From Gammaproteobacteria bacterium (lineage in GTDB: Bacteria; Pseudomonadota; Gammaproteobacteria; Eutrophobiales; Eutrophobiaceae): DNA of 64,000 bases. Position numbers and translations under genes: made by a program. Below are positions 1,701 through 51,203 of the stretch, one piece after another (the stretch's first letter is position 1; the number at the start of each line of letters is the position of its first letter). A model generated the notes under the pieces. That model did not search any database. It saw only the letters and a list, made by a program, of their open reading frames with translations, and had not been told where the DNA came from. The stretch lies in assembly GCA_965221695.1 (NCBI GenBank), contig OZ244905.1, positions 640,001 to 704,000 of the forward strand. Reading direction: 5' to 3'.

Positions 1701-3026
1701 TCAATACCTCGCGAGAAGGTAGAGCCAGTAAATGGTTTTATCCGCGCTCTGGGCGGCATTGCGAGCGAGGTTAAGCGCATTCCGGTCGGCATTATAATCC
1801 GCATATTTAAAACCCACGGTGTAATGTTTGTAAAAGTTTTTTTCCACGAGTATATCCAGTTCATTGCCGTAGTCGTAAGAGTCCTTGTCCGTTTTCAGCA
1901 TATGATAAGATAACGCCAGGTCTGTGTTATAGATCGACGTAGTATAGTTAATATAGGTATCTTCAATGCCATCTCCAGGTGTAATCACGAAACGATCGGC
2001 CCACCCCTGGAATGCGTGATTAGTGCCAAGTATGGTGACAAACCTGTCGGCGCCGCCATCGCCGCCGAGCAATTCATAATTGGCAGTCAGAGAAAAGGAT
2101 TTAACTGGCCCCTGTCCGCCGCTCCAGGCGACGCCGCCGGCAGTCAGCAGATAATCGGCATTGATATGCTTCTTGTTATTGGCCTGGTCGCGCTGGTTTG
2201 CATACTCAAATGTATACAATATCCGCCAGGACTCATTTACCCGCCAGGCGCCTGACAGGCGTATGCCCAGCGTTCCGACGGAAAAAGCGGCAGCATTGTC
2301 AAAATCCAGCCAATAACCATAAGCCTCAATTTTTGCCTTGACAGATTTGTCATACAGGACGTTCAACAAATGTGAATTACTGTCAAATTTGTCCAGCGGG
2401 TCGGGAGCGTCGTTACCGAATATACGATTGACCTGCCAAGTGTAGCCGTATCTGATCTTGAGATGCTCAACCGGTGTCATCTCAACGGTCAGCGCGTCAT
2501 GGGTTTGCCAGTTCTGCCGCCATAATACCGTGCCCAGATAACGATGCAGCGGCGCTTTGCGCCAGGTGATGATTTGTCGTCCCACTTTCATACGCGTAGC
2601 CGGCAAACCGTTAAAACTCAGCCAGGCTTGATTGAGTTCCGTGCCGTTCGGGTCGGCGACAACGGCATAATCAGTTTTGTCATTGGAGCCGTTGTTAAAA
2701 TCATCGGGGCCGAGTTCACTGATATGTTCGAACTCAATGCCGGCATTAAAACCATGGAAAGACGCTGTATCGTAACCCAGTACCAACCGGAGTGTAGAGG
2801 CTTCGGCTGTCTTCAATGGGTTACTGCCGGCAGCTCGCCCATCATCCTCTACCCGCTCAAAACGATAGCGTCCGACAAAGCGAAACTTGCCTCCTAATAT
2901 TGCATCTTCTAAACGCTGCGTTGGGCGCTGCGCCTGAATGTCCGCATTGACCCGATGAGAAGCGCAGGAAAAGATCAGCGCCAAACCGATAAAACCACAG
3001 CCCAGATGGGCATATACATCTCTCAT
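1701..3026 (-). CDS. Alginate export (AlgE-like) family outer-membrane porin
   Basis: 441 aa with signal peptide, RBS GAGGAG and a C-terminal aromatic residue. Family motifs RYRFERV, VADPNGTELNQAW, KVGRQ, WRQN and LGTNHAFQGWADRF. This family often neighbours nitrate/nitrite reductase genes. Confidence 0.75.
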   Translation of the reverse strand: MRDVYAHLGCGFIGLALIFSCASHRVNADIQAQRPTQRLEDAILGGKFRFVGRYRFERVEDDGRAAGSNPLKTAEASTLRLVLGYDTASFHGFNAGIEFEHISELGPDDFNNGSNDKTDYAVVADPNGTELNQAWLSFNGLPATRMKVGRQIITWRKAPLHRYLGTVLWRQNWQTHDALTVEMTPVEHLKIRYGYTWQVNRIFGNDAPDPLDKFDSNSHLLNVLYDKSVKAKIEAYGYWLDFDNAAAFSVGTLGIRLSGAWRVNESWRILYTFEYANQRDQANNKKHINADYLLTAGGVAWSGGQGPVKSFSLTANYELLGGDGGADRFVTILGTNHAFQGWADRFVITPGDGIEDTYINYTTSIYNTDLALSYHMLKTDKDSYDYGNELDILVEKNFYKHYTVGFKYADYNADRNALNLARNAAQSADKTIYWLYLLARY

Positions 3027-3139
3027 AGGTTTTCTCCTCGCAAAACCGGCGCGTTATGTAAAGGGCCTCCGCTTCAGCCGGAAGCTCCTGCAGCGCAGGT
3101 ATGTGTCATCGAAGATAATCTCCAATAAGTTGCGATTCC

Positions 3140-3153
3140 TTGATACCGGTCAA
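3140..3153. promoter_or_regulatory. FNR/DNR box in the divergent porin / TonB receptor promoter
   Basis: TTGAT-ACCG-GTCAA, one mismatch to TTGAT-N4-ATCAA. Confidence 0.7.
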
Positions 3154-3190
3154 GTTATTCAACAATTCGGCAACCATAATATCAGCCACC

Positions 3191-5356
3191 ATGAAACGCT
3201 CTTTACTGCTTGCCTGTTTCGTCCTCTCCATCTTATGGGGGTTCTCTCCCGGCGCCACAGCCAAGGATTTTCTCGAAGAAATCGTTGTGGTCGGCAGCAA
3301 AACCGAACGGCCGCGTTGGACCGTCTCCGGCCAGGTGGAAACATTCACCCGGGAACGACTGGACTGGCAACAAGTCGCTGAGTTCAGCGATGTCAGCCGT
3401 TACGCGCCAGCATTGGAAGCAGATTACAGTGGCAGCCGCTTCGGCTTTACCGGCCTTTCAATTCGCGGCGTGGGAGATAACCGAGTGGCTCTGGAACTGG
3501 ACGGCTCACCATTGCCACAACAGCTTGACGTTGGCAGTTTTGCGGATAACGGCCGCCTGGCGCTTGACCCAGCAACCATCAAGCGCATCGAAATCCTGCG
3601 CGGTCCCGCATCAGCGCTGTATGGTTCGGACGCGATTGGCGGCGTCGTGATCATTGACACTGTTGACGGCGCTGACCTGGTTGATGCTGGCCGACGCTAC
3701 TACTGTGGCGCAAACGGCGGCTATTACAGCGCCGATAATTCAAAACATGGCCAAGCCACTTGCGCCTGGGCGAACGATACCGACAGCGCCATGCTCTCTG
3801 TGAGCCGGCGCGCCGGCCATGCATTAGAGAACCGGGCCAGGGATGTGGAAAGTGACCGTGTCAAGTTCAACCAATGGCAATGGTTTGCAAAATGGAGTCA
3901 TGCATTTAATCACGGCGGCAACTTGCGCTTCCTGGTCGATTATTTCAGCCGTAACACAAGCAGCGACCTGCGCGCGCAACTGGGATATGAGCGTTTTGCC
4001 AGTACCACAAAACTACAAGGCGACGATGAACAGCAGCGTTACCGGATAGCGTTGCAATATGACCTGCCCGCCTGGCGCTGGTCAGATCAGCTCAGGCTGC
4101 TAGCCTATTACCAGCATAACGATACCGAACAACAGACCGAACAATACCGTCGCAGCTTTGGCGCCCCGGTATTCCTGCAACGGAATTTCTTCCTCACTGA
4201 GCAAAACCTGGGCGGCGAAATTAAATCCAGGCATGAGTTCAGTGTCGCCGGGCTTGATCATGTGTTGCTTGCGGGTATGGAATGGGATCGGCAACGGCTG
4301 CTCGAAAGACGCAATGCCAGCCAGACAAATCGGATAAGCGGACAGGTGACAAACACTGTTCTGGGAGAAACCTTTCCCCTGCGAGACATGCCAAAATCCA
4401 CGACTGACAAAGTGGGAATCTTCATCCAGAATGAGATCCTGTGGAAAAACCTGACCCTGACGCCGGCGCTTCGCTGGGACTATTTCAAACTTGATTCCGA
4501 TACCGACTCTTATGTTACCGACAAGACCTTGCTGACCGACCTGAGCAGCGCTGACCTGACCGCGCGTCTGGGTCTGGTATGGCGATTGAGCGACGATTTT
4601 TCTGTTTATGCCCATTACGCGGAAGGATTCCGAGCGCCACCGGCGGAAGACGTCAACCTGTTTCTTGATATTGCTCTGTTCAACTATCGCTCGTTGCCAA
4701 ACCCCGATTTAAAACCGGAACGTTCGCGCAACCTTGAAATCGGTTTTCTACTGCGCTGGCACGGGTTGTCAGTAGAAGCCGGCGCATACCACTCACGCTA
4801 TCGCAACTTTATCGAAACTCGCGCGTTAATCGGCCCTGACCCGGACACGGGAGGATTGTTATTTCAGTCCCGAAACCTTGAAGATTCGACCATTTATGGC
4901 TTTGAAGCCAACTTGAGCCAATCGCTTGAGTCGCTACGCCTGATGCATCGGGGATGGCACATCGATGCCGGCCTGCACTGGGCCCGGGGGGAAAATGACG
5001 TGACCTCATTGCCACTAAATTCGGTCAATCCGCTAAAAGCGGTGATCGGGCTGCGTCGGGAAATAGCATCGCAGCCTTTTGCAGCCAGCTTGCGAGTGGT
5101 CCATTATGGCAAACAACATCGTACTGATTTTAGCGCCGGCGATTTTTTTGTGCCTTCTTCCGCAACAGTAGCAGACCTGACGCTCTGCTGGAAACAATCC
5201 GAGCGTCTGCGCTGGTTTCTCGGCATATATAACCTGACGAATAAACGTTATCAGCGTTATACCGAAACGCGCAGGCTGAAACCGGATGACCCAAGACTGG
5301 AAATTCTGACCCAACCGGGGATTAACGCGGCGCTGACCCTGCACATCGATTTTTAA
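3191..5356 (+). CDS. TonB-dependent heme/hemoglobin-family receptor
   Basis: The ORF track starts at TTG 3140, but ATG 3191 gives a signal peptide (MKRSLLLAC). TonB box EEIVVVG, plug motif RIEILRGPASALYGSDAIGGVV, heme-receptor FRAP...NPDL motifs, terminal Phe. Confidence 0.85.
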   Translation: MKRSLLLACFVLSILWGFSPGATAKDFLEEIVVVGSKTERPRWTVSGQVETFTRERLDWQQVAEFSDVSRYAPALEADYSGSRFGFTGLSIRGVGDNRVALELDGSPLPQQLDVGSFADNGRLALDPATIKRIEILRGPASALYGSDAIGGVVIIDTVDGADLVDAGRRYYCGANGGYYSADNSKHGQATCAWANDTDSAMLSVSRRAGHALENRARDVESDRVKFNQWQWFAKWSHAFNHGGNLRFLVDYFSRNTSSDLRAQLGYERFASTTKLQGDDEQQRYRIALQYDLPAWRWSDQLRLLAYYQHNDTEQQTEQYRRSFGAPVFLQRNFFLTEQNLGGEIKSRHEFSVAGLDHVLLAGMEWDRQRLLERRNASQTNRISGQVTNTVLGETFPLRDMPKSTTDKVGIFIQNEILWKNLTLTPALRWDYFKLDSDTDSYVTDKTLLTDLSSADLTARLGLVWRLSDDFSVYAHYAEGFRAPPAEDVNLFLDIALFNYRSLPNPDLKPERSRNLEIGFLLRWHGLSVEAGAYHSRYRNFIETRALIGPDPDTGGLLFQSRNLEDSTIYGFEANLSQSLESLRLMHRGWHIDAGLHWARGENDVTSLPLNSVNPLKAVIGLRREIASQPFAASLRVVHYGKQHRTDFSAGDFFVPSSATVADLTLCWKQSERLRWFLGIYNLTNKRYQRYTETRRLKPDDPRLEILTQPGINAALTLHIDF

Positions 5357-5371
5357 TAAAAGCGCCACGAA

Positions 5372-5385
5372 TTGATCAGTGTCAA
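5372..5385. promoter_or_regulatory. FNR/DNR box upstream of nirS
   Basis: TTGAT-CAGT-GTCAA about 60 bp before the nirS ATG. Confidence 0.8.
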
Positions 5386-5431
5386 GAGACTACAGCCAAT
5401 AACCTGCTATTTTTTCGCTGTGTTCTGTTAG

Positions 5432-7510
<2,079 letters not shown>

Positions 7511-7564
7511 CTCGGATTATTCTCCGAGGCTCGCCTCAGAACAGGTGTAGAAGTTACAACTAAG

Positions 7565-7649
7565 GGAAGCTCTGACAAGTCCATCCAGGACTTGTCAGAG
7601 AGCGGCACAGTTTCTGTGTCGCAGAACCTTTGATTTAATCAGAGGTTGG
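7565..7649. mobile_element. Short three-hairpin variant of the 150-bp MITE family
   Basis: GGAAGCTCTGACAAGTCC-atcca-GGACTTGTCAGAG, GCGGCACAG-ttt-CTGTGTCGC and AACCTTTGA-tttaa-TCAGAGGTT, followed by TTAA. Confidence 0.75.
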
Positions 7650-7702
7650 TTAATCGATGTGTTCAATCCGCCGCCAGTCGGCCTCAGTTGTGATGGTGTA
7701 AA

Positions 7703-8431
7703 ATGTCTTATCCAGATGTAACAGTTGCGCATAATGCCGACAAAAAAGTTTTCCCATTTAACCCCTTGGAAAAAATGTTCAAACAGGACTTGTTCCAGGA
7801 CCTGAACGCCGCACAGCGTTCGCTGATCCGCTCTTCAATTCGCACTATCCGTCTGAAGCAGGGTCAGACCCTGTTTCAACAGGGAATGCCGGCCAGGTCA
7901 TTCTATTTTATTGTCAATGGCTGGATAACGTTATTCCGTCTGCATGAAAGCGGCGCCACCACCGTGATACATACTTTTGGCGCTGGGGATATGTTCGGCG
8001 AGGTCGCGGCGCTGGCCATCAACAGCTATCCTGTTACGGCTGATGCGGCAACAGATACGATCGTGTATTCAATACCGGCTGCCGCTTATCGTGCACTGAT
8101 AGAACGGGATGCCCGCCTCGCGATACGCGTTATCAACAGCCTGGAACAACGCGTCCGCATCTTGATCAGCGAGTTTGAACGTTGCCAGCAAGACTCCGGC
8201 GTAAACCGGCTGGCGTCGTTCCTGGTCGAATTGTCTCGCCGCTCAAACTCAAACAATGGTCACTACATGCTGCCGTTCAGCAAACAAACGCTGGCAGGCA
8301 TGTTGCATATCCAACCGGAAACTCTGTCACGCGCGTTCTCGGTACTGCGTAAATACGGCGTAAAAAGCTACCGTAATGGCCGCGTGCACATTCCGGATAT
8401 GCGCGCTCTGAACACCCTCCTCCGCGAATAA
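7703..8431 (+). CDS. Crp/Fnr family regulator, DNR/NnrR-like (true start may be 7775)
   Basis: cNMP-binding fold (LFQQG, GDMFGE, YPVTADA) and recognition helix PETLSR with the ExxSR motif that reads FNR boxes. No N-terminal Cys cluster. Confidence 0.85.
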   Translation: MSYPDVTVAHNADKKVFPFNPLEKMFKQDLFQDLNAAQRSLIRSSIRTIRLKQGQTLFQQGMPARSFYFIVNGWITLFRLHESGATTVIHTFGAGDMFGEVAALAINSYPVTADAATDTIVYSIPAAAYRALIERDARLAIRVINSLEQRVRILISEFERCQQDSGVNRLASFLVELSRRSNSNNGHYMLPFSKQTLAGMLHIQPETLSRAFSVLRKYGVKSYRNGRVHIPDMRALNTLLRE

Positions 8432-8536: not shown

Positions 8537-8592
8537 AAGAAAGCAGAGATTCCTGTTGTTTGCTCCGACTGACCTCACACTTTCGTTGCAGT

Positions 8593-9576
8593 TCAATCCA
8601 GGTCCAGTTTGAACAACTCAATGGCATTGGAGCGTCCTATCTTCACGCGCTCCTCCTCGGTGATTACGCTGGTGGCGTCGTACCAGTCCGCCGCATCCTC
8701 CATGCGTTCAAACGGATAGTCGGCGGAGAAGTAGAGCCTGTCCTTACCCAGCACATCCAGGGCGCAGCGGAACGCCGGATCGTCAAACAAGCCGCTAACG
8801 GTGATATGGAAATGCTCCCGGAAGTAATCGCCCAGCGGGCGTTTGCCGCGGTAGCCGCGTCGGGAAAATCGCATGCGCGCATCAAGACGCCACAGGGCAA
8901 ACGGGATATTCTCTCCCATATGACCCACGGCTATCTTCAGGTTGGGAAAATCATCGAACACGCCGGAACCGCACAGGCGCAACGCGTGGATCGAGGTTTC
9001 CACCGCGAAGCCCCAGGGAGCGCTCATCAACCAGGGGTGCCCATCATAGTTTCTGGCCTGGGCGGGAATCTGCATACGCGGGTGCAGGTAAAAAGGCACG
9101 TCCAGGTCCGATACCGCCGCCCAGAAGTCACGGTACTCCGGTATGTCGTAGTATATCGCCGTGTCCGGTTCGTCTTTTTGGGTAAACCCGTTTACCAGCG
9201 CGCCCTTGAAACCGAGTTCATTGACACACCGCTCCACCTCCGCAGCCGCGGCAGCGGGGTCTTGCATGGGCAGCGCAGCCATGCCGGCATAACGGTTCGG
9301 GTGTTGGGTCACCGCGTCGGCAATACGGTTGTTCGCCTTGCGCGCAAGCTCGATGGCTTGCTCAGTATCCAGAATCGCCTGCAGGCCCGGCGCATTGAGA
9401 GACAGCAGCGCCAGTTCGATTCCGGTCTTATCCATTGCCGCGAGGCGCATGTCGTCGACATCCAGAAGTTCCAGGGTAAACTCGTCCCATCTACCCGAAT
9501 CGCCGGCAAATGCTTTGGCATTGCCGACGGTTTCTTCGATGGCCAAGTGTTCTTCAAATGCGATTTTGCCTTTCAT
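8593..9576 (-). CDS. Amidohydrolase-family non-oxidative decarboxylase (gamma-resorcylate / 2,3-dihydroxybenzoate decarboxylase-like)
   Basis: MKGKIAFEEH, LSLNAPG, FYLHP, GHMGE and FSADYPFE motifs. Confidence 0.85.
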   Translation of the reverse strand: MKGKIAFEEHLAIEETVGNAKAFAGDSGRWDEFTLELLDVDDMRLAAMDKTGIELALLSLNAPGLQAILDTEQAIELARKANNRIADAVTQHPNRYAGMAALPMQDPAAAAAEVERCVNELGFKGALVNGFTQKDEPDTAIYYDIPEYRDFWAAVSDLDVPFYLHPRMQIPAQARNYDGHPWLMSAPWGFAVETSIHALRLCGSGVFDDFPNLKIAVGHMGENIPFALWRLDARMRFSRRGYRGKRPLGDYFREHFHITVSGLFDDPAFRCALDVLGKDRLYFSADYPFERMEDAADWYDATSVITEEERVKIGRSNAIELFKLDLD

Positions 9577-9610
9577 GATACTCTTATCTCTCAGTGTTAT
9601 CGGTTTATGA

Positions 9611-11356
9611 TCAGTGTTGCGAACGCAGTTCCGGCGGGAGCCATTCGTAGTGGGAAAAACGATTGGTCCAGCCGGTTTCGTATCCGGGTAAAGGAATGAC
9701 GCCGTTATCGGCTACATAGGCATCCCAAAGCGCTTGCATTTCAGCCAGTTTCTGAGGGTGATGCTCCGCCAAGTCAATGCTTTCTGCCGGATCCTCGGCC
9801 AGGTTGAACAGCGACCAGCGCCCCTCCGGTCCCCACGGCGCATTCATCCAGGTTATCTTCCAGTCACCCTGCACCACGCCCCTGCGGCCCATCATCACGT
9901 ACGCAAAATAGTCCTCCGGCGGGTGCGCCTGCGTGCTTGAACCGTGCAGGAACGCGCGCATCGACCTCCCTCTCATCGGCGGCATTGGCTCGCCATTGTC
10001 GGCAACGCCCGGATGCTCTACGCCGGCATAATCCAGCAAGGTAACAGGCAGGTCAAGGACGTTTGCTGGGGCGGACGACACCTCTCCTGCTTCAATACGG
10101 CCGGGAAAACGGAAAATGGCCGGTGTGCGAATCCCCCCTTCGGTAGGAAACCCCTTAAAATAACGCAACGGGGCGCTGCCGACATGCGCCCAGCCTGCCC
10201 CCAGCCAGGAATAGGAACCGGGCCTCCCCAGGTTCTCCTGGCTGACATCAAAGCGGCCCTCGGCCCAGTCAAAACCCGGTTGCCCATAAAAATCCAACGG
10301 ATTGCCCCCTTCCGCGCCGTTGTCGGAGAGGAAGATCACCAGCGTGTTGTCCGCCAGTCCCTCCCGCTCCAGGTATTCGAGGACTCTGCCAATATGAAAA
10401 TCCATGGCTTCCGTCATCGCCGCGTACACTTGCATGCGGCGGACTTCGAGGCTGCGCATGGTTTCATCCAGGTCATTCCATACCGGCCAGGCCGGATGCT
10501 GTTCTGCCGCGACCTGCTGTTCGCCAATCAGCCCGGTGTTACGCATCCGTTCGATGCGCGCGGCGCGCACGGCATCATAACCCTGTTCGTATACTCCGGC
10601 ATAGCGCTCGATATATTCATCCGGCGCGTGCAGTGGGTAATGTGGCGCAGTAAATGGCAAGTAGGCGAAAAAAGGCTTGCCGTCGGACCGATGACGGTCA
10701 ATATACTCCATAATCTTGTCGGCATAGTTCCTGGAGGAGTAAAAGTCATCGGGCAACTCAATCTCACGACCGTTTTCCACGTAAGTCACTGAGTCCAGTT
10801 CCAGCAATGACGGCGCCCTGTTGAAATGGGAACCGCTACCCTCCACCAGCACGAAAGATTCCTCGAACCCGCGCCGGTCGGGCCACAGGACCGGGTTGCC
10901 ATGCCCGCCCATGTCCCATTTGCCGGCGATATAGGTATGGTAGCCATCGCCGTGTAACACGTTGGCGATGGTCGTCACCCGGTCTGTGAGGTAGGTCTCA
11001 TAACCCGGTTGTCCGCGTATCGCCGGCGTAAACTCCCCGGCCATGGTGCCGTAGCCGGCAGGGTGGCTGTCGGCGCCGGTGAGCAGCATCGCGCGGGTGG
11101 GTGAGCACAACATGTGCACCCGGAAATGGGTCATCAGCATGCCCTGGGCCGCGAGCCGGTCGATATTGGGCGTGCGGATCTCACTGCCCATCACTCCGAT
11201 GTCCGAATACCCCATATCATCCGCGAGGATGACCAGGAAGTTGGGGCGTTCGGGTTGTTTGCCGGTACAGGCGACCAGCAGACAGGCGGCACATAGCAAC
11301 GACAACCGCATTGTCAGCCGGAAAGACAAGAAGGGAAAGGATTTACTGCCCCTCAT
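9611..11356 (-). CDS. Arylsulfatase (Cys-type, formylglycine-dependent), probable lipoprotein; likely start 11311
   Basis: PNFLVILADDMG, CSPTRAMLLTG, GKWD, APHYPLHAP and SDNG motifs; lipobox-like LLVAC. Confidence 0.9.
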   Translation of the reverse strand: MRGSKSFPFLSFRLTMRLSLLCAACLLVACTGKQPERPNFLVILADDMGYSDIGVMGSEIRTPNIDRLAAQGMLMTHFRVHMLCSPTRAMLLTGADSHPAGYGTMAGEFTPAIRGQPGYETYLTDRVTTIANVLHGDGYHTYIAGKWDMGGHGNPVLWPDRRGFEESFVLVEGSGSHFNRAPSLLELDSVTYVENGREIELPDDFYSSRNYADKIMEYIDRHRSDGKPFFAYLPFTAPHYPLHAPDEYIERYAGVYEQGYDAVRAARIERMRNTGLIGEQQVAAEQHPAWPVWNDLDETMRSLEVRRMQVYAAMTEAMDFHIGRVLEYLEREGLADNTLVIFLSDNGAEGGNPLDFYGQPGFDWAEGRFDVSQENLGRPGSYSWLGAGWAHVGSAPLRYFKGFPTEGGIRTPAIFRFPGRIEAGEVSSAPANVLDLPVTLLDYAGVEHPGVADNGEPMPPMRGRSMRAFLHGSSTQAHPPEDYFAYVMMGRRGVVQGDWKITWMNAPWGPEGRWSLFNLAEDPAESIDLAEHHPQKLAEMQALWDAYVADNGVIPLPGYETGWTNRFSHYEWLPPELRSQH

Positions 11357-47402: not shown

Positions 47403-47682
47403 TGGCTAAACGTTGTTCACGTCGCCTGCGTATATGTTCAAGCGCAGAAACAGCGGGAGTGATATTTTCCTGTTCGATTTGACTATTGCCCAAAGCCAAT
47501 ATCTTCAGCATTGCCAGCGTCTCTTGATTCTCTTCAAAACTGTTGATGTCTTGCACCACGAGCCTAGCCTCACCGTTCTGAGTAATAATCAGCGGCTGTT
47601 TTTGCTCGTTTAATTGACGAACAATATCGGCTGTATGGGCCTTGAGATAACTGATGGGTTTAATTTGCAGTGATAATTTCAT
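47395..47682 (-). CDS. Phd/YefM family antitoxin
   Basis: IKPISYLKAH...PLIITQNGEARLVVQD; overlaps the toxin start. Confidence 0.88.
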   Translation of the reverse strand: MKLSLQIKPISYLKAHTADIVRQLNEQKQPLIITQNGEARLVVQDINSFEENQETLAMLKILALGNSQIEQENITPAVSALEHIRRRREQRLANV

Positions 47683-47931: not shown

Positions 47932-48073
47932 CTTTGCCGCCTGGTTGGAGAACAGGTAAACTTCCGGTGGGGTTGAGATATTCACAGTACTGATGTCGGG
48001 GGAATGGACTTCAAATCCATCTGCGCTCCCAAGGGTATGATGACCGAGTTGAGTGTAAAAATGGCTTAGATAT

Positions 48074-48316
48074 ATGAGAACGACGATAGACATTAATGAT
48101 GAGTTACTGAAAGAAACCAAAGCATATGCATTCAGTGAACGCAAGACACTCAAAATGGTGGTGGAGCAGGCTTTGTGCTTGTTTCTCACATCATCGCCGG
48201 AACTGAAGAAAACTGCGGTCACGCCAATTCCAATATTCCGTGGTCAAGGCGTACAGCCTGGCGTGGACTTAACTGACAATGCAACGTTGGAGGAACTCAT
48301 GGATGCAAAGTGCTGA
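48074..48316 (+). CDS. VapB-like (ribbon-helix-helix) antitoxin
   Basis: MRTTIDINDELLKETK...GVQPGVDLTDNATLEELMD. Confidence 0.8.
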   Translation: MRTTIDINDELLKETKAYAFSERKTLKMVVEQALCLFLTSSPELKKTAVTPIPIFRGQGVQPGVDLTDNATLEELMDAKC

Positions 48317-48370
48317 TGCCATCATGCAGCTATAGCCTTGGAATACGGTTGTGAATAGGTCACTGATGGA
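48310..48370 (+). pseudogene. Internally deleted vapC
   Basis: GTG-CTG-ATG-CC (MLMP start) is fused directly to sequence reading (ADA)-HAAIALEYGCE*VT, the C-terminal PIN motif. Confidence 0.65.
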
Positions 48371-48420
48371 ATAACTGAACAAAAATGATCTTTGTTCAAA
48401 ATATTGAAGCGCGTATTAAG

Positions 48421-49455
48421 CTAACCACTCTCAGTTGGTCTGCTGAGCATTGGGCGGCAATTCCGCCTCATTATATGTATGAGATCCTCCACTCGATTGC
48501 TAACTCGCTCACCCTCTTTCGAAAAGCTGAGAAGCAAAACAGGAGGTTTATTTCCCTCTCGTTGTACCATTAATCTTCCGAGTAACCGAGCTGCTTCTTG
48601 GTTATTCGTAAATTTCATCCTCAGACAATGACGAATCCCTGTCGCTATCAGGTCGGCGACCTGGACACCCTGATTTGCCATCGAATCCACAAAATTGAAG
48701 TCTTCATGTATCAACTGTCCGATGTTTAGCGGTGGTCCCCTATCTCCAATATCAATTCCATAGGCTGTTTTGAGGTATGTCGGAGTTTCTCCTTCAGGAT
48801 AGTCGAAACGCTGAAAAGCGCTGTAGTCTTCACCTTCCAAGATCGGAATTGGCTCTCTAAGTGAAAAGCTCTGCAACAATGCCGGAGTTAGCATTTCGAA
48901 CGTTTTCTCGTACTCGGTTCTAGTTAAGTTCTTCTGGTCAATCCTCCAGCGAAATTTTCCAAGTGATTTAGGAAATCGTTGTACAAAGTAGAGAACGCCA
49001 TCTCTTACAATCATCGATATCAGATTGATTTGACACTGCAATTGTACGTAAAGCTGTGGCGAAAGGTTCCTTACTTTGTCAGAGAGTATTTCCACTGCAC
49101 GGCGGCCATTCTCATAGAGCATTACATTTTTATGCTTTGTGATAGCTGCGCATTGATTTTCTTGATGAGTCAATACATCGGAGACTCGATTCGAACCTGC
49201 ATCGGTAGCGACTGAGAAAAGAACACCATTCAGTTTGCCGAGGCCTCCTAAAAAAATGAAATAGTCCTTCTCACGAACATGCCTTAGCTTTATCTCACTA
49301 TTTCGCGAAACACCCGTGGCCTGCTTCAAACGCGTTAAGATCTCCTGCATTCTTCTTCGATCAGATTCTGGCGTTACATACGCCACAATACAGTTCCAAG
49401 AGTCACACCTTGGAGAGATTACGAAACTTCCTGATTCATCAAGAAAGATGTTCAC
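48421..49455 (-). CDS. DUF3800 family protein (ORF open to 49494)
   Basis: N-terminal IFLDESG, EIK and C-terminal DS...GVQVADLIA motifs; AT-rich. Confidence 0.8.
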   Translation of the reverse strand: MNIFLDESGSFVISPRCDSWNCIVAYVTPESDRRRMQEILTRLKQATGVSRNSEIKLRHVREKDYFIFLGGLGKLNGVLFSVATDAGSNRVSDVLTHQENQCAAITKHKNVMLYENGRRAVEILSDKVRNLSPQLYVQLQCQINLISMIVRDGVLYFVQRFPKSLGKFRWRIDQKNLTRTEYEKTFEMLTPALLQSFSLREPIPILEGEDYSAFQRFDYPEGETPTYLKTAYGIDIGDRGPPLNIGQLIHEDFNFVDSMANQGVQVADLIATGIRHCLRMKFTNNQEAARLLGRLMVQREGNKPPVLLLSFSKEGERVSNRVEDLIHIMRRNCRPMLSRPTESG

Positions 49456-49490
49456 GCATCTGGTGCAATAATCTAGATAGCAGGCTTTGC

Positions 49491-49778
49491 TCAAGCCGCC
49501 TTCTTGGGTCGTGTAGTAATTTTCAGTTCCCGCCCCACCCTGGCCAGCATATTCACCAGCGCATCAATACTGAATTTGAAGATATGACCGTTCATGAGTG
49601 CGCTGACTTCAGGCTGATTGATCTCCAACAAGGCAGCGGCATCTTTCTGCTTGAGGCCTTTCTTACGGATGTATTACCGGATTTCAATCAGTAACTCCGC
49701 TCGGACTTTCATGTTGGCGGCTTCCTGTTTGTTGAAACCAATATCCTCAAAGATATTGTCTGTCGTGATATTTTTCAT
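49491..49778 (-). pseudogene. XRE/HigA-like antitoxin with in-frame stop
   Basis: My translation: MKNITTDNIFEDIGF...ELLIEIR*YIRKKGLKQKDAAALLEINQPEVSALMNGHIFKFSIDALVNML...KKAA. TAA at 49674-49676. Confidence 0.8.
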
Positions 49779-49805
49779 CGTACTATCTCTTAATCTGTTT
49801 AGGCA

Positions 49806-51203
49806 TTACAGGTTTCTTTTCATGATGAAACTTTCGTTGATAAACCACAGGCCGTCGAATTCGTTGATCACTTCCATGGTGGTCCTTAAATAATCACTGT
49901 GTTCGGCCATCACGGCATCGACTTTTTCCTCGGGGACCTGGCAGACGTAGACCAGGTTATTCCAGGCTGCCTGCAAGGTTGCCTGGCTGACCTGGTTATG
50001 GGGGTCGATGGGTAATGTATGCATGTCAAAGCGGAACAGGGAGGTCTTGTCCGTGGCGCCGGTAAACGTGTATTTTCGTCTTGCATCGCCCAGGGATGAT
50101 CGGAGCGCGCTGACGATTTCCTGCCTGCGCACAAACACGGGGGCTTCTTCTTTCCAGATACGCTTCACCACTTCATGGGCAGGGTCCTGGCCGTAAGACT
50201 GGATAACCAGCATGCGCCCGTTCGGCGCCAGGTTCAGCGCCAATGGCCGCAACACGCGGTTTACCTTGAAGTCCAACGGCGCGCTGTGTCGATATAAATG
50301 GGAGGCGAGAATAAAATCATATTCGCGGCGCTCATAGCCGGGCCTGGGTATGATTTCGTTCAACAGAAATTTGTGGTCTTCCCTGTAGAGCACCAGCACA
50401 TTGGGCTTTTCATATAATGCCTGTCCGCGCTCACCGGTTTTAATGCGCCAGTTTTCAGCCAGCTTCGGGTGCAATGCGCTGATCTGCTGCTGAAAATCAA
50501 ACGCGGTTGAACCTTTCAGCGCGACGTCCTGCCACTCGAGCGCCATCGCCGCATGCACGGAATTGGCGCTAAGTGACGCGGCCTCATCAAAGTGCATATT
50601 GGTGACCACAAAGACGGTCAACGGATGTTCCAGGAACCGATCGGCCAGCCTGCCCAGGCTGTTCCTGAGGTCATCCAGACCATGTTCCTTGGCCACCACC
50701 AGGAACGGGATATTGGGGTGTTGGTTATGCAATGCCCGCAACACTCGCGCGATGACCACGCCATTCCTCAAGCTGCCGTCAAAAATGCGGAACGCAGGCG
50801 GCTTGATCGCCATATCCGCCATGGACTGGAAGCAGCGATCTGCAATCATCCACTTTTCGTTGCAGGTATTCGCCAGCAAGTGATGTTTCAGGCGTTCGTC
50901 ATGGTATTCATGGGCGTGGTACGGCCGCTCGGCTGTTTCACTTTCACGAATTTCAGACAACGCCTCGACACTGGCGACAGATTGCTTGCGCCTGGCGCGT
51001 CCTTTTACCACTTTCCTGCCGGAATTGACTTCTTCCATGAACTGGTAGATCCGGTTTACGGTATTGTCGCCTATGGCTGCGCCGTTGCGCGCGCGCTGGA
51101 CGAATTTGCCGTCGTTGACGGCGAGTCTGCCCAGGGTTGATTCGGCAATGCCGGCGCGCCTGCAAAAGGCATTGATATCATGAATAAGCTTTGCGTGTGT
51201 CAT
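49806..51203 (-). CDS. Hypothetical protein: N-terminal HTH-like domain plus degenerate methyltransferase-like domain
   Basis: FCRRAGIAESTLGRLAVNDGKFV HTH-like start; NTCNEK, FRIFDGSLRNG, YDFILASH and LAPNGRML resemble class I MTase strands. Confidence 0.55.
   Translation of the reverse strand: MTHAKLIHDINAFCRRAGIAESTLGRLAVNDGKFVQRARNGAAIGDNTVNRIYQFMEEVNSGRKVVKGRARRKQSVASVEALSEIRESETAERPYHAHEYHDERLKHHLLANTCNEKWMIADRCFQSMADMAIKPPAFRIFDGSLRNGVVIARVLRALHNQHPNIPFLVVAKEHGLDDLRNSLGRLADRFLEHPLTVFVVTNMHFDEAASLSANSVHAAMALEWQDVALKGSTAFDFQQQISALHPKLAENWRIKTGERGQALYEKPNVLVLYREDHKFLLNEIIPRPGYERREYDFILASHLYRHSAPLDFKVNRVLRPLALNLAPNGRMLVIQSYGQDPAHEVVKRIWKEEAPVFVRRQEIVSALRSSLGDARRKYTFTGATDKTSLFRFDMHTLPIDPHNQVSQATLQAAWNNLVYVCQVPEEKVDAVMAEHSDYLRTTMEVINEFDGLWFINESFIMKRNL

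Follow-up and report, generated by a model that had tools for sequence, protein, structure and literature searches.

How does a bacterium supply a cytochrome cd1 nitrite reductase with its cofactor, heme d1, if the genes known to make that cofactor are missing? This question is raised by a 64,000-nucleotide stretch of a gammaproteobacterial chromosome (here called the window), in which nirS lies next to a gene for a TonB-dependent receptor of the heme/hemoglobin family. An earlier note on this DNA had interpreted the receptor as an importer of heme d1 or of a precursor, and our analysis supports that interpretation, as its predictions held wherever an in silico test was possible. The order of genes and promoter boxes that it had described, running from a divergent porin-like gene through the receptor and nirS to a DNR-type regulator, is correct in strands and gene assignments (Table 1). 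The source genome (G000) is closed and consists of one contig of 3.54 Mb, with a completeness of 96.85%.

Table 1. Features of the nirS locus, with positions counted from the first letter of the window
Feature	Position	Strand	Description
Porin-like ORF P0001, 441 aa	1701..3026	-	Outer-membrane barrel fold
FNR/DNR-type box TTGATaccgGTCAA (= TTGATACCGGTCAA)	3140..3153	.	Divergent porin/receptor promoter region
TonB-dependent receptor P0002, 721 aa	3191..5356	+	Heme/hemoglobin family; candidate heme d1 importer
FNR/DNR-type box TTGATcagtGTCAA (= TTGATCAGTGTCAA)	5372..5385	.	nirS promoter
nirS P0003, 687 aa, two CxxCH motifs	5447..7510	+	Cytochrom_D1 domain
DNR/NNR-type CRP-FNR family regulator P0123, 242 aa	7703..8431	+	cNMP_binding + HTH_Crp_2

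The NirS protein and its regulator

Profile matches and retained motifs show that nirS codes for a true d1 enzyme, namely, a cytochrome cd1 nitrite reductase whose N-terminal part contains an additional cytochrome c domain. Profile searches identified Cytochrom_D1 (PF02239, 493 bits) and two cytochrome c domains. Residues 150-687 align to the NirS of Pseudomonas aeruginosa (1nir set) with 877 bits and with the d1-site motifs retained; the HPGRGANF and YQGA motifs are aligned and identical between the two proteins, and their d1 pockets are ~70% identical. We take His182, His327, His369 and Tyr10 to be the d1-ligand and catalytic residues of NirS. The N-terminal part (residues 22-135) resembles the cytochrome c domain of three-domain Cu nitrite reductases. 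This extra domain was considered as a marker of NirS proteins that lack d1 genes and was rejected, as G144 has both the domain and a full d1 operon.

The regulator encoded after nirS, P0123, has a single Cys, no N-terminal Cys cluster and an ETLSR recognition helix. Its domains, the absence of the Cys cluster and the TTGAT-N4-ATCAA-like boxes ahead of nirS, of the receptor/porin pair and of a quinol-type NO reductase gene place it in the DNR/NNR type, and an ortholog with 69% identity is found at the same position in G008.

Heme d1 biosynthesis genes in the genome

The absence of d1 genes, first described for the flanks of nirS and the rest of the window, extends to the whole closed genome. 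In the full-genome search that the earlier note had proposed, NirS was the sole match to PF02239, with no NirF and no NirN; PF17805 (NirDLGH) gave zero matches, and the top score against TIGR04051 (NirJ) was 82 bits, far from the cut-off of 515. A tblastn search with the NirC, NirF, NirD, NirL, NirGH, NirJ and NirN proteins of G144 matched nothing beyond generic radical-SAM proteins and NirS. The genome codes for one SUMT, located within a 464-aa open frame that we regard as a CysG-like candidate, and siroheme synthesis appears to be present. It also encodes a ferrochelatase, so the bacterium makes its own protoheme.

Distribution of the receptor and of the d1 genes

Relatives of the receptor were gathered by a receptor-alignment search; a single query with the window receptor gave no related loci, and among the closest database relatives (40-71% identity) the context was recovered for L158 and L159 only. 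In species genomes, the best 21 relatives (out of at least 80) all lie beside a nirS with two CxxCH motifs, and the same is seen in G008 and G283, so that the co-localisation of receptor homologs with nirS proposed as a check does occur; none of the next 59 relatives among the matches listed (0/59) adjoins nirS. At the 21 loci, four of which end at a contig edge, nirS is located downstream on the same strand in 15, is convergent in 5 and lies ~6.5 kb away in 1. The tree agrees with the gene context, with the nirS-linked receptors forming a clade of their own (clade A, A-type receptors) that a 100* branch separates from the non-linked ones (clade B). Among the metagenome matches listed, 17 of 31 A-type loci are beside nirS and 1 is beside a NirN-like protein, while the 13 loci with neither all have a flank shorter than 3.8 kb on one side or both; at one of them (L169), nirS was not found in the 3.7 kb upstream of the A-type receptor or in the 5.2 kb downstream. 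At L158, a receptor 62% identical to that of the window is found next to a NirN-like d1-binding propeller.

We consider it very improbable that the genes are adjacent by chance or that nirS is decaying or non-functional. The module formed by the receptor, the porin-like gene and nirS is carried by just 2 of the 22 species of the genus and is therefore dispensable, but among the matches listed the receptor-nirS linkage recurs at 23 genome loci, in several orders and with otherwise unrelated flanks. Moreover, all genes of the module are intact, with dN/dS values of 0.07-0.18; in the comparison with G008, nirS is under purifying selection (0.07), and the values for the porin-like gene and the receptor are 0.14 and 0.17, respectively.

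The genomes that carry the receptor-nirS pair lack the d1 pathway. NirDLGH (PF17805) and NirJ were found in 0/22 of those searched, most of which are MAGs of unstated completeness, and a second Cytochrom_D1 protein is encoded in one of the 22 (G047); since the G041-G061 set was gathered through the receptor, it tests the absence of d1 genes and not the presence of the receptor. The control genomes G024 and G034 have PF17805, NirJ and a second Cytochrom_D1 protein. NirDLGH was not found in G283 either; in all, G000 and 24 further genomes encode NirS but not the d1 biosynthesis genes expected to accompany it. Because d1 genes are usually grouped in a single operon, the loss of one contig from an assembly could conceal the entire set, but the closed chromosomes of G000 and, according to its title, L040 argue against this.

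The reverse comparison gives the same picture, with the receptor in 0/5 of the d1-making genomes. In a sample of 400 genomes of the class, 71 have NirS, and it is the sole Cytochrom_D1 protein in only 3 of these (G000, G283 and G430); the remaining 68, with at least two such proteins, gave no receptor matches (0/68). A-type receptors were limited to G000 and G283, while the other five receptor matches of the sample and the paralogs within the genus have a B-type loop. The anti-correlation with d1 genes that the earlier note anticipated is therefore found from both sides: the receptor goes together with genomes that encode the dependent enzyme but lack the biosynthesis of its cofactor, as in cofactor salvage.

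The NirS of G144 is the sister of the window NirS (100*) and is followed by nirC-F-D-L-GH-J-N, in a genome with no receptor. Compared with this classical nirS-nirMCFDLGHJEN type of cluster, of which G144 holds the NirS closest to ours, the window has the same NirS core and lacks the entire d1 part, both at the locus and in the genome, with the receptor and the porin-like gene beside nirS instead. Another genome, G430, codes for a d1-less two-heme NirS and the porin-like gene, and no receptor of this family was found among the 27 candidates scored, so either bacteria can dispense with d1 genes by means other than the receptor or its place is taken by a different transporter.

G430 also bears on the possibility that d1, or a substitute cofactor, is made by an unrecognised pathway and that the receptor imports something else required for denitrification. 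Missing known families do not amount to a missing function, G430 copes without the receptor, and the SUMT frame could provide siroheme as a starting point. Nevertheless, we regard this explanation as unlikely, given that among the matches listed the only recurrent neighbours of nirS at the 21 loci are the receptor, the porin-like gene, regulators and nor genes, with no cytoplasmic enzyme gene among them, that the d1 pocket of NirS resembles that of P. aeruginosa, and that the sister NirS still sits in a classical operon.

The porin-like gene

The porin-like protein P0001 had no Pfam (E <= 0.01) or NCBIfam match, and its nearest Atlas clusters carry PF13372 (Alginate_exp). Its AlphaFold model has 18 strands (pLDDT 69.8), and Foldseek matched it to MOMP, Occ, AlgE and chitoporin at a TM of ~0.6; by this model, P0001 is an 18-stranded outer-membrane beta-barrel of the AlgE/Occ/MOMP kind. 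Homologs adjoin nirS at 11 of the 21 best listed genome loci and in G008, G283 and G430, and the gene belongs to the module as its third conserved component.

This conservation opens the possibility that the channel is the true route of d1 (or of nitrite), the receptor being an accessory that, for example, takes d1 from foreign holo-NirS or acts in sensing. The gene is found with nirS at 15 of 25 d1-less loci (among the matches listed), it is the sole outer-membrane gene beside nirS in G430, and its fold matches include AlgE, an alginate transporter according to PDB titles; alginate is a polyanion. However, the porin-like gene is missing at 10 of the 21 listed genome loci that retain the receptor, the confidence of its model is moderate, and its sequence gives no specificity, so we give this route a small probability, below that of an unrecognised pathway.

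The receptor and its ligand site

The receptor has a signal peptide, an EEIVVVG stretch that is presumably the TonB box, and Plug (PF07715) and barrel (PF00593) domains. It passes the cut-offs of both TIGR01786 (336.8 versus 323.75) and TIGR01785 (324.1 versus 316.85) and is the only receptor of the genome above the latter. The top PDB match of its AlphaFold model (pLDDT 88.7) is PhuR of P. aeruginosa (8THE), with a TM of 0.88 and 27% identity. Like PhuR, it has a plug, a 22-strand barrel and a loop of the FRAP...NPNL kind that lids the ligand site, and the equivalent of PhuR R355 (R331) is invariant. The FRAP and NPDL motifs with a Tyr and no His between them, already read from the sequence, are confirmed, the Tyr being Y499; boxes of the FRAP/NPDL type are invariant in the relatives.

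The binding loop has been remodelled in the nirS-linked clade. The study of PhuR (10.1101/2023.08.01.551527) gives Y529 as the heme-iron ligand and R353 as a propionate-binding residue. Neither is conserved in this clade: 57 of the 59 non-linked receptors (among the matches listed) have Tyr at the position equivalent to Y529, compared with only 26 of 140 members of the nirS clade, in which the axial Tyr is lost in 114 and replaced in most by I, V or F, while the equivalent of R353 is Arg in 85% of the non-linked receptors and most often Leu (49%) in the nirS clade. The clade has instead gained R268 (99%) and R500 (89% overall and 23/23 of the linked receptors), and D493 is also conserved. This altered ligand site would fit a more carboxylated tetrapyrrole. 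In the window receptor, Y499 aligns with PhuR Y529, so ordinary heme binding may still be possible for this particular protein.

With a 90% threshold, just 5 positions tell clades A and B apart; the informative differences emerged beyond these, after the PhuR contacts had been mapped.

The 59 listed non-linked receptors are flanked by GDT1, ABC ATPase, DUF6607 and histidine kinase genes, and classical heme-utilisation genes were not found among the recurrent flank families tested, so our claim for this clade of candidate heme-iron receptors is limited to its keeping the PhuR Tyr.

Promoter boxes and regulation

The whole genome contains 16 sites with the pattern TTGA[TC]N4[AG]TCAA, including one 66 nt upstream of the gene for a quinol-type NO reductase (qNor). 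The second box in Table 1 has its centre ~68 nt ahead of the start codon (ATG) of nirS. The first is centred ~44 nt from the ATG of the receptor and ~120 nt from the start of the porin-like gene, and with these distances it may drive the porin-like gene, the receptor (whose transcript would be almost leaderless) or both. An exact box precedes nirS at 10 of 25 loci, and a box with at most one mismatch precedes 12 of 23 clade-A receptors, versus 4.7% of random windows. The two clades differ in this respect: among the matches listed, such a box was found upstream of 11/22 clade-A and 2/58 clade-B receptors, while a Fur box (at least 14/19) was found upstream of 0/22 and 10/58, respectively. The top Fur-box match in the upstream region of the window receptor reaches 10/19, which agrees with the first reading of this promoter as having an FNR/DNR box and no obvious Fur box. 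Members of the TIGR01785/TIGR01786 family are typically under Fur control and linked to genes for heme transport or degradation, and the nirS-linked receptors depart from the family in both respects.

These data allow us to weigh an alternative, namely, that this is an ordinary receptor for protoheme or hemoproteins that provides iron or heme for a heme-rich anaerobic respiratory chain and has no link to nirS beyond shared regulation, with d1 obtained in some other way. The family cut-offs, the PhuR fold, the FRAP and NPDL motifs, Y499 and R331 are all compatible with it. We nevertheless find it improbable, about as much as an unrecognised pathway, since the genome makes its own protoheme, HemS and heme oxygenase were not found in it, the receptor flanks at the 21 loci (among the matches listed) show no recurrent gene for inner-membrane heme transport or for heme degradation, most of the clade has lost the axial Tyr, and Fur boxes are lacking. 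It also leaves unexplained the restriction of the receptor to d1-less nirS, which it always accompanied in the genomes examined.

A proposed route for heme d1

We consider it probable that the receptor is a TonB-dependent importer of heme d1, or of a late precursor, for the periplasmic NirS of d1 auxotrophs. The bacterium would synthesize apo-NirS while all the known enzymes leading from siroheme to heme d1 are absent. The receptor encoded upstream of nirS would bind heme d1 shed by d1-producing denitrifiers, although dihydro-heme d1 or another late form could also be the ligand, as could d1 taken from foreign holo-NirS, and TonB energy would move it over the outer membrane into the periplasm. 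Heme d1 is described as being held non-covalently, and the maturation of apo-NirS as periplasmic (PMC3694632). Imported d1 could thus insert spontaneously into the NirS pocket, so that no inner-membrane transporter would be required. An NO- or anoxia-responsive regulator of the DNR/FNR type probably co-induces the receptor, nirS, the porin-like channel and the quinol NO reductase.

A functional parallel is PqqU, a TonB-dependent PQQ importer through which bacteria that do not make PQQ but have a periplasm-facing PQQ-dependent enzyme are reported to import the cofactor (PMC12124388, 10.1101/2022.06.07.495086). The logic is the same, dedicated outer-membrane import of a cofactor that the host cannot make, although the cofactor, the enzyme and the receptor lineage differ (NF041535 gives only 38 bits for the window receptor), and the function of PqqU is experimentally established, whereas that of the nirS-linked receptor is a prediction. 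BtuB provides another precedent, the TonB-dependent salvage of a modified tetrapyrrole (B12) by auxotrophs; B12 then has to cross the inner membrane via BtuCDF, a step that d1, with its use in the periplasm, would not need, and the sequence similarity is weak (93.8 bits versus a cut-off of 836). Within denitrification, NosA of Pseudomonas stutzeri is a TonB-dependent receptor that supplies the prosthetic metal to a periplasmic enzyme, the N2O reductase. The NosA/OprC receptors are similar in serving a denitrification enzyme from the outer membrane, and OprC is among the fold matches of our receptor, but they bind a copper ion instead of a tetrapyrrole, and receptor and enzyme genes do not lie side by side as they do here. 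A literature search, with most subscription journals outside its coverage, found nothing on heme d1 uptake, salvage or auxotrophy or on a nirS-linked TonB receptor.

Implications for denitrifying communities

In a broader reading, which we favour at somewhat better than even odds, heme d1 would be a traded cofactor, a "vitamin of denitrification," and an entire clade of Gammaproteobacteria with nirS, including, according to record titles, Woeseiaceae, Lysobacterales, Steroidobacteraceae, Arenicella and Kangiellaceae, would be d1 auxotrophs that import it into the periplasm through a dedicated PhuR-derived TonB-dependent transporter, some lineages adding a NirN-like periplasmic d1 handler (L158) or the 18-stranded channel. 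Surveys rate Woeseiaceae as truncated denitrifiers (PMC12175321). NirS is a standard marker of denitrifiers and, if this reading is true, the presence of nirS alone would not predict the capacity to reduce nitrite, as activity would hinge on cross-feeding of d1 within the community; nitrite reduction and N2O output by this clade in sediments would depend on d1 producers. The receptor would be the first known d1 transporter, adding a new substrate class to TonB-dependent transport, and the second clear case of periplasm-only cofactor salvage, after PQQ. It could also be a tool for delivering d1 to engineered strains. Finally, a module of two or three genes could transfer nitrite respiration horizontally without the d1 operon of about ten genes.

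Organization of the nirS locus

Judged from its residues, the NirS of the window is a true d1 enzyme. Residues 150-687 align with the NirS of P. aeruginosa at 877 bits, and the motifs at the proximal His (YAVHISR), both distal His and the N-terminal Tyr are identical to those of that protein. Residues 22-135 form an additional cytochrome c domain, similar to that which three-domain copper nitrite reductases carry as a fusion. Gene order, strands and the two boxes agree with the description in the earlier note, as do the FRAP and NPDL motifs of the receptor, which enclose Tyr499 but no His. The receptor exceeds the curated cut-offs of two heme/hemoglobin receptor families (TIGR01786, 336.8 against 323.75; TIGR01785, 324.1 against 316.85), and its EEIVVVG stretch is presumably the TonB box.

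Features of the receptor-nirS locus and related sites (window coordinates unless a contig is named)
Feature	Position	Strand	Description
Porin-like gene	1701-3026	-	441 aa
FNR/DNR-type box	3140-3153		TTGATACCGGTCAA; between porin-like gene and receptor
TonB-dependent receptor	3191-5356	+	721 aa, signal peptide
FNR/DNR-type box	5372-5385		TTGATCAGTGTCAA; between receptor and nirS
nirS	5447-7510	+	687 aa, two CxxCH motifs, Cytochrom_D1 domain
Inverted repeat	7570-7601		arms of ~13 bp, just 3' of nirS, no clear T-run
CRP/FNR-family regulator	7703-8431	+	242 aa, no FNR Cys cluster, ETLSR helix
Long ORF past regulator	8560-9699	+	379 aa, no family match
Long ORF overlapping the former	8593-9576	-	
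Quinol-type NO reductase	G000:C1:1764987-1767272	-	761 aa, NorB_cytochrome_c-like and COX1; window's genome, outside the window

The pattern TTGA[TC]N4[AG]TCAA occurs at only 16 sites across the 3.54-Mb genome, two of which bracket the receptor; a third (TTGATGAAAGTCAA) lies 66 nt upstream of the quinol-type NO reductase gene. As the first box is near both starts (~44 nt to the receptor ATG, ~120 nt to the porin start), it could serve either gene. The inverted repeat could act as a terminator, or form a regulatory hairpin ahead of the regulator gene. Elsewhere in the window there are two one-mismatch FNR-like boxes, at 47524 and 49618, and GC falls to 0.447 at 48001-50000 (~0.55 elsewhere). 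A search of the genome for nosZ with PF18764, run without a positive control, gave no match.

Distribution of the heme d1 pathway

No d1 biosynthesis genes were found anywhere in the genome of the window (a single contig, 96.85% complete), which extends to the whole chromosome what the earlier note had seen in the window. NirS alone matches the PF02239 profile, so that there is no NirF and no NirN; the best NirJ match scores 82 bits where the model's cut-off is 515, and PF17805, the siroheme-decarboxylase domain representing NirDLGH, has no match. Searches by tblastn with NirC, NirF, NirD, NirL, NirGH, NirJ and NirN of the d1-making genome G144 returned nothing beyond generic radical-SAM proteins and NirS. 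The one SUMT lies within a 464-aa open frame, a putative CysG-like siroheme synthase. A ferrochelatase is encoded, so protoheme is made by the organism itself. HemS and a canonical heme oxygenase were looked for in the genome and not found, and no second receptor lies above the heme-receptor cut-off.

The anti-correlation of receptor and d1 genes expected by the earlier note also held. In 22 genomes with receptor and nirS (the same-genus G008, and G041-G061, chosen via the receptor), most of them MAGs of unstated completeness, neither PF17805 nor NirJ at E <= 1e-40 was found in any (0/22 each); a further Cytochrom_D1 protein, distant and 31% identical to NirN, was seen in G047 only. The control genomes G024 and G034 gave 3 and 4 PF17805 matches and clear NirJ matches. 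Across 400 genomes sampled evenly from the class, NirS is present in 71 and is the sole Cytochrom_D1 protein in only three, namely the window's genome, G283 and G430; PF17805 was not found in the latter two and was present in three genomes with two Cytochrom_D1 matches. In G283 the receptor, nirS and the porin-like gene occur at one locus. At E <= 1e-70 the receptor matched in at least 7 of 401 genomes, a floor, as two candidates were scored per genome; among those seven, only the window's genome and G283 have NirS. The five remaining matches, a second receptor of G283 and two paralogs in the genus have another type of loop. A full search of five d1-making genomes found no receptor at E <= 1e-30.

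Recurrence of the receptor-nirS pair

Within the genus, NirS occurs in 2 of 22 species, and the same two, the window's and G008, are the only ones with a close receptor (71% identity); they share the porin-receptor-nirS-regulator block. Co-localization of receptor homologs with nirS, suggested earlier, was seen at all of the best-scoring loci listed. A scan of species genomes with an alignment of receptor relatives gave at least 80 loci, and the best 21 of the 80 listed all have nirS (58-70% NirS identity where enough sequence is present; one, at a contig end, has only an N-terminal nirS fragment, of 40% identity), while none of the other 59 does. These 21 are labelled Woeseiaceae (5), Lysobacterales (3), Steroidobacteraceae (2), Arenicella, Kangiellaceae, unclassified Gammaproteobacteria or Proteobacteria (8) and Acidimicrobiia (1). 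The last, a contig labelled uncultured Acidimicrobiia, has the receptor-nirS-porin module as in Gammaproteobacteria (NirS 68% identity), pointing either to mis-binning of the contig or to transfer between phyla.

In 15 loci nirS comes immediately after the receptor in the same orientation, in 5 the two are convergent, and in 1 nirS is ~6.5 kb away; four of the 21 loci end at a contig edge. All 19 linked nirS genes read fully or nearly so code for two CxxCH motifs, except one with a broken frame (L042), against only 1 of 21 NirS from d1-making genomes. The flanks are otherwise unrelated; recurrent genes other than receptor and nirS are limited to the porin-like gene (11/21), nor genes, regulators and hemN-like genes.

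At least 31 metagenome loci have the loop signature of the window's receptor, and nirS is present at 17 of the 31. In another, L158, the receptor (1836-3998, 62% identical to the window's) is divergent from a 472-aa NirN-like Cytochrom_D1 protein without a CxxCH motif (L158:346-1764, minus strand; 222.6 bits; 46.6% identical to G144 NirN), which might handle d1 in the periplasm; downstream there is an IS200-type transposase. Neither nirS nor a NirN-like gene was found at 13 of the 31 listed loci, all of them with at least one flank shorter than 3.8 kb. Exceptions to the pattern do exist. L169, an 11.1-kb metagenome contig, is probably a true one: it has a receptor of the linked type, and the 3.7 kb upstream and 5.2 kb downstream of this receptor contain no nirS. 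The neighboring genes code for cupin, GST-like, cytochrome c and ferredoxin-domain proteins. The other is G430, where a two-c-heme nirS precedes the porin-like gene and NnrS lies upstream (G430:C14:1-19000), and no receptor of this family was found genome-wide. That the adjacency is due to chance, or that nirS is decaying, is hardly credible: between the window's genome and G008, the dN/dS values of nirS, receptor, porin-like gene and regulator are 0.07, 0.17, 0.14 and 0.18, respectively (dS 1.2-1.5, near saturation).

In the NirS tree, 20 receptor-linked NirS group with those of G430 and of one d1-maker, G144 (SH-aLRT 89), and the G144 protein is sister to those of the window and G008 (100*; FastTree and quick IQ-TREE supports are not bootstraps). 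G144 nirS (719 aa, two CxxCH) stands in the order hemerythrin, nirS, nirC, nirF, nirD, nirL, nirGH, nirJ, nirN (G144:C312:1-13049), and that genome has no receptor; this kind of NirS is thus accompanied by either a d1 operon or the receptor. An unrecognised d1 pathway, with a receptor ligand unrelated to d1, would also supply such a NirS, and we regard it as improbable; no recurrent candidate biosynthetic enzymes were found in the flanks of the 21 loci.

Receptor clade and ligand site

A FastTree of 199 receptors places the 59 non-linked ones on one side of a 100* branch, with 23 nirS-linked receptors and 117 database relatives on the other. The AlphaFold model of the window's receptor (pLDDT 88.7) best matches P. 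aeruginosa PhuR (8THE; TM 0.88, 27% identity). The cryo-EM account of PhuR describes Y529, on the loop that connects FRTP to PNPNL, as binding the heme iron, R353 and R355 as holding the propionates, and Y519 and H124 as away from the heme (10.1101/2023.08.01.551527). In a phmmer alignment Y529, R353 and R355 correspond to Y499, L329 and R331 of the window's receptor, respectively.

Residues at ligand-site positions in the two receptor groups (numbering of the window's receptor)
Position	Non-linked	nirS-linked clade
499 (Y529 equivalent)	Tyr 57/59	Tyr 26/140; Ile 40, Val 35, Phe 15
329 (R353 equivalent)	Arg 85%	Leu commonest, 49%
500	Arg 5%; Thr commonest, 37%	Arg 89%; linked receptors 23/23
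268	Arg 7%	Arg 99%
493	same residue 0%	Asp conserved
492	same residue 7%	Leu conserved

Most nirS-linked metagenome loci listed have the signature ...N-I-G-L-[DE]-x-P-x-x-[NG]-x-R-A-[IV]-P-N-P-D-L, and the other loci have a variant loop with F-T-N...G-Y-T; the Arg is missing in L179, L183 and L184, two of which are nirS-linked. Loss of the axial ligand together with gain of arginines would fit a more carboxylated tetrapyrrole, such as heme d1. The window's receptor retains the Tyr, unlike most of its clade. In the sister clade (L056-L114; Stenotrophomonas, Xanthomonas and others) the PhuR-type Tyr is retained, and a DUF6607 protein recurs in the flanks of 13 of its loci, directly after the receptor in L082 (L082:12115-13119).

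Regulation and the porin-like gene

FNR/DNR rather than Fur control of the receptor had been proposed, and the box counts in the clade agree. A box with at most one mismatch lies within 250 nt upstream of 12 of 23 nirS-linked receptors, compared with 4.7% of windows drawn at random from those loci; in a second count, the figures are 11/22 against 2/58 in the sister clade, with Fur-box matches of at least 14/19 at 0/22 and 10/58, respectively. An ordinary heme receptor, a reading to which the family scores and the PhuR-like fold lend themselves, is unlikely here.

The porin-like protein had no family match in profile searches; its Atlas neighbors carry Alginate_exp, and the structural matches to its model (18 strands, pLDDT 69.8) include the barrels of MOMP, Occ, AlgE and chitoporin (TM ~0.6). 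Its role could be nitrite entry, d1 passage or something else. That this channel is the main route for d1, as its presence beside nirS in G430 might suggest, seems very unlikely.

Proposed role in heme d1 salvage

Apo-NirS would be exported and receive its heme c in the periplasm, and the apo-enzyme has reportedly been reconstituted with d1 in vitro in earlier published work. The TonB-dependent transporter would carry d1 over the outer membrane into the periplasm. Heme d1 is described as bound non-covalently, with its last steps and insertion periplasmic in producers (PMC3694632), so that imported d1 would already be in the right compartment. The proposal follows the logic of cofactor delivery by PqqU, the PQQ importer (PMC12124388; 10.1101/2022.06.07.495086). 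The receptor superfamily is already known, and the salvage logic has precedents in PqqU and BtuB; a full-text literature search found no description of heme d1 uptake, d1 auxotrophy or a nirS-linked receptor. Taken from sequence comparison, the receptor is probably a TonB-dependent heme d1 importer, as the earlier note had proposed, and would serve the periplasmic NirS of a bacterium that has no d1 pathway.
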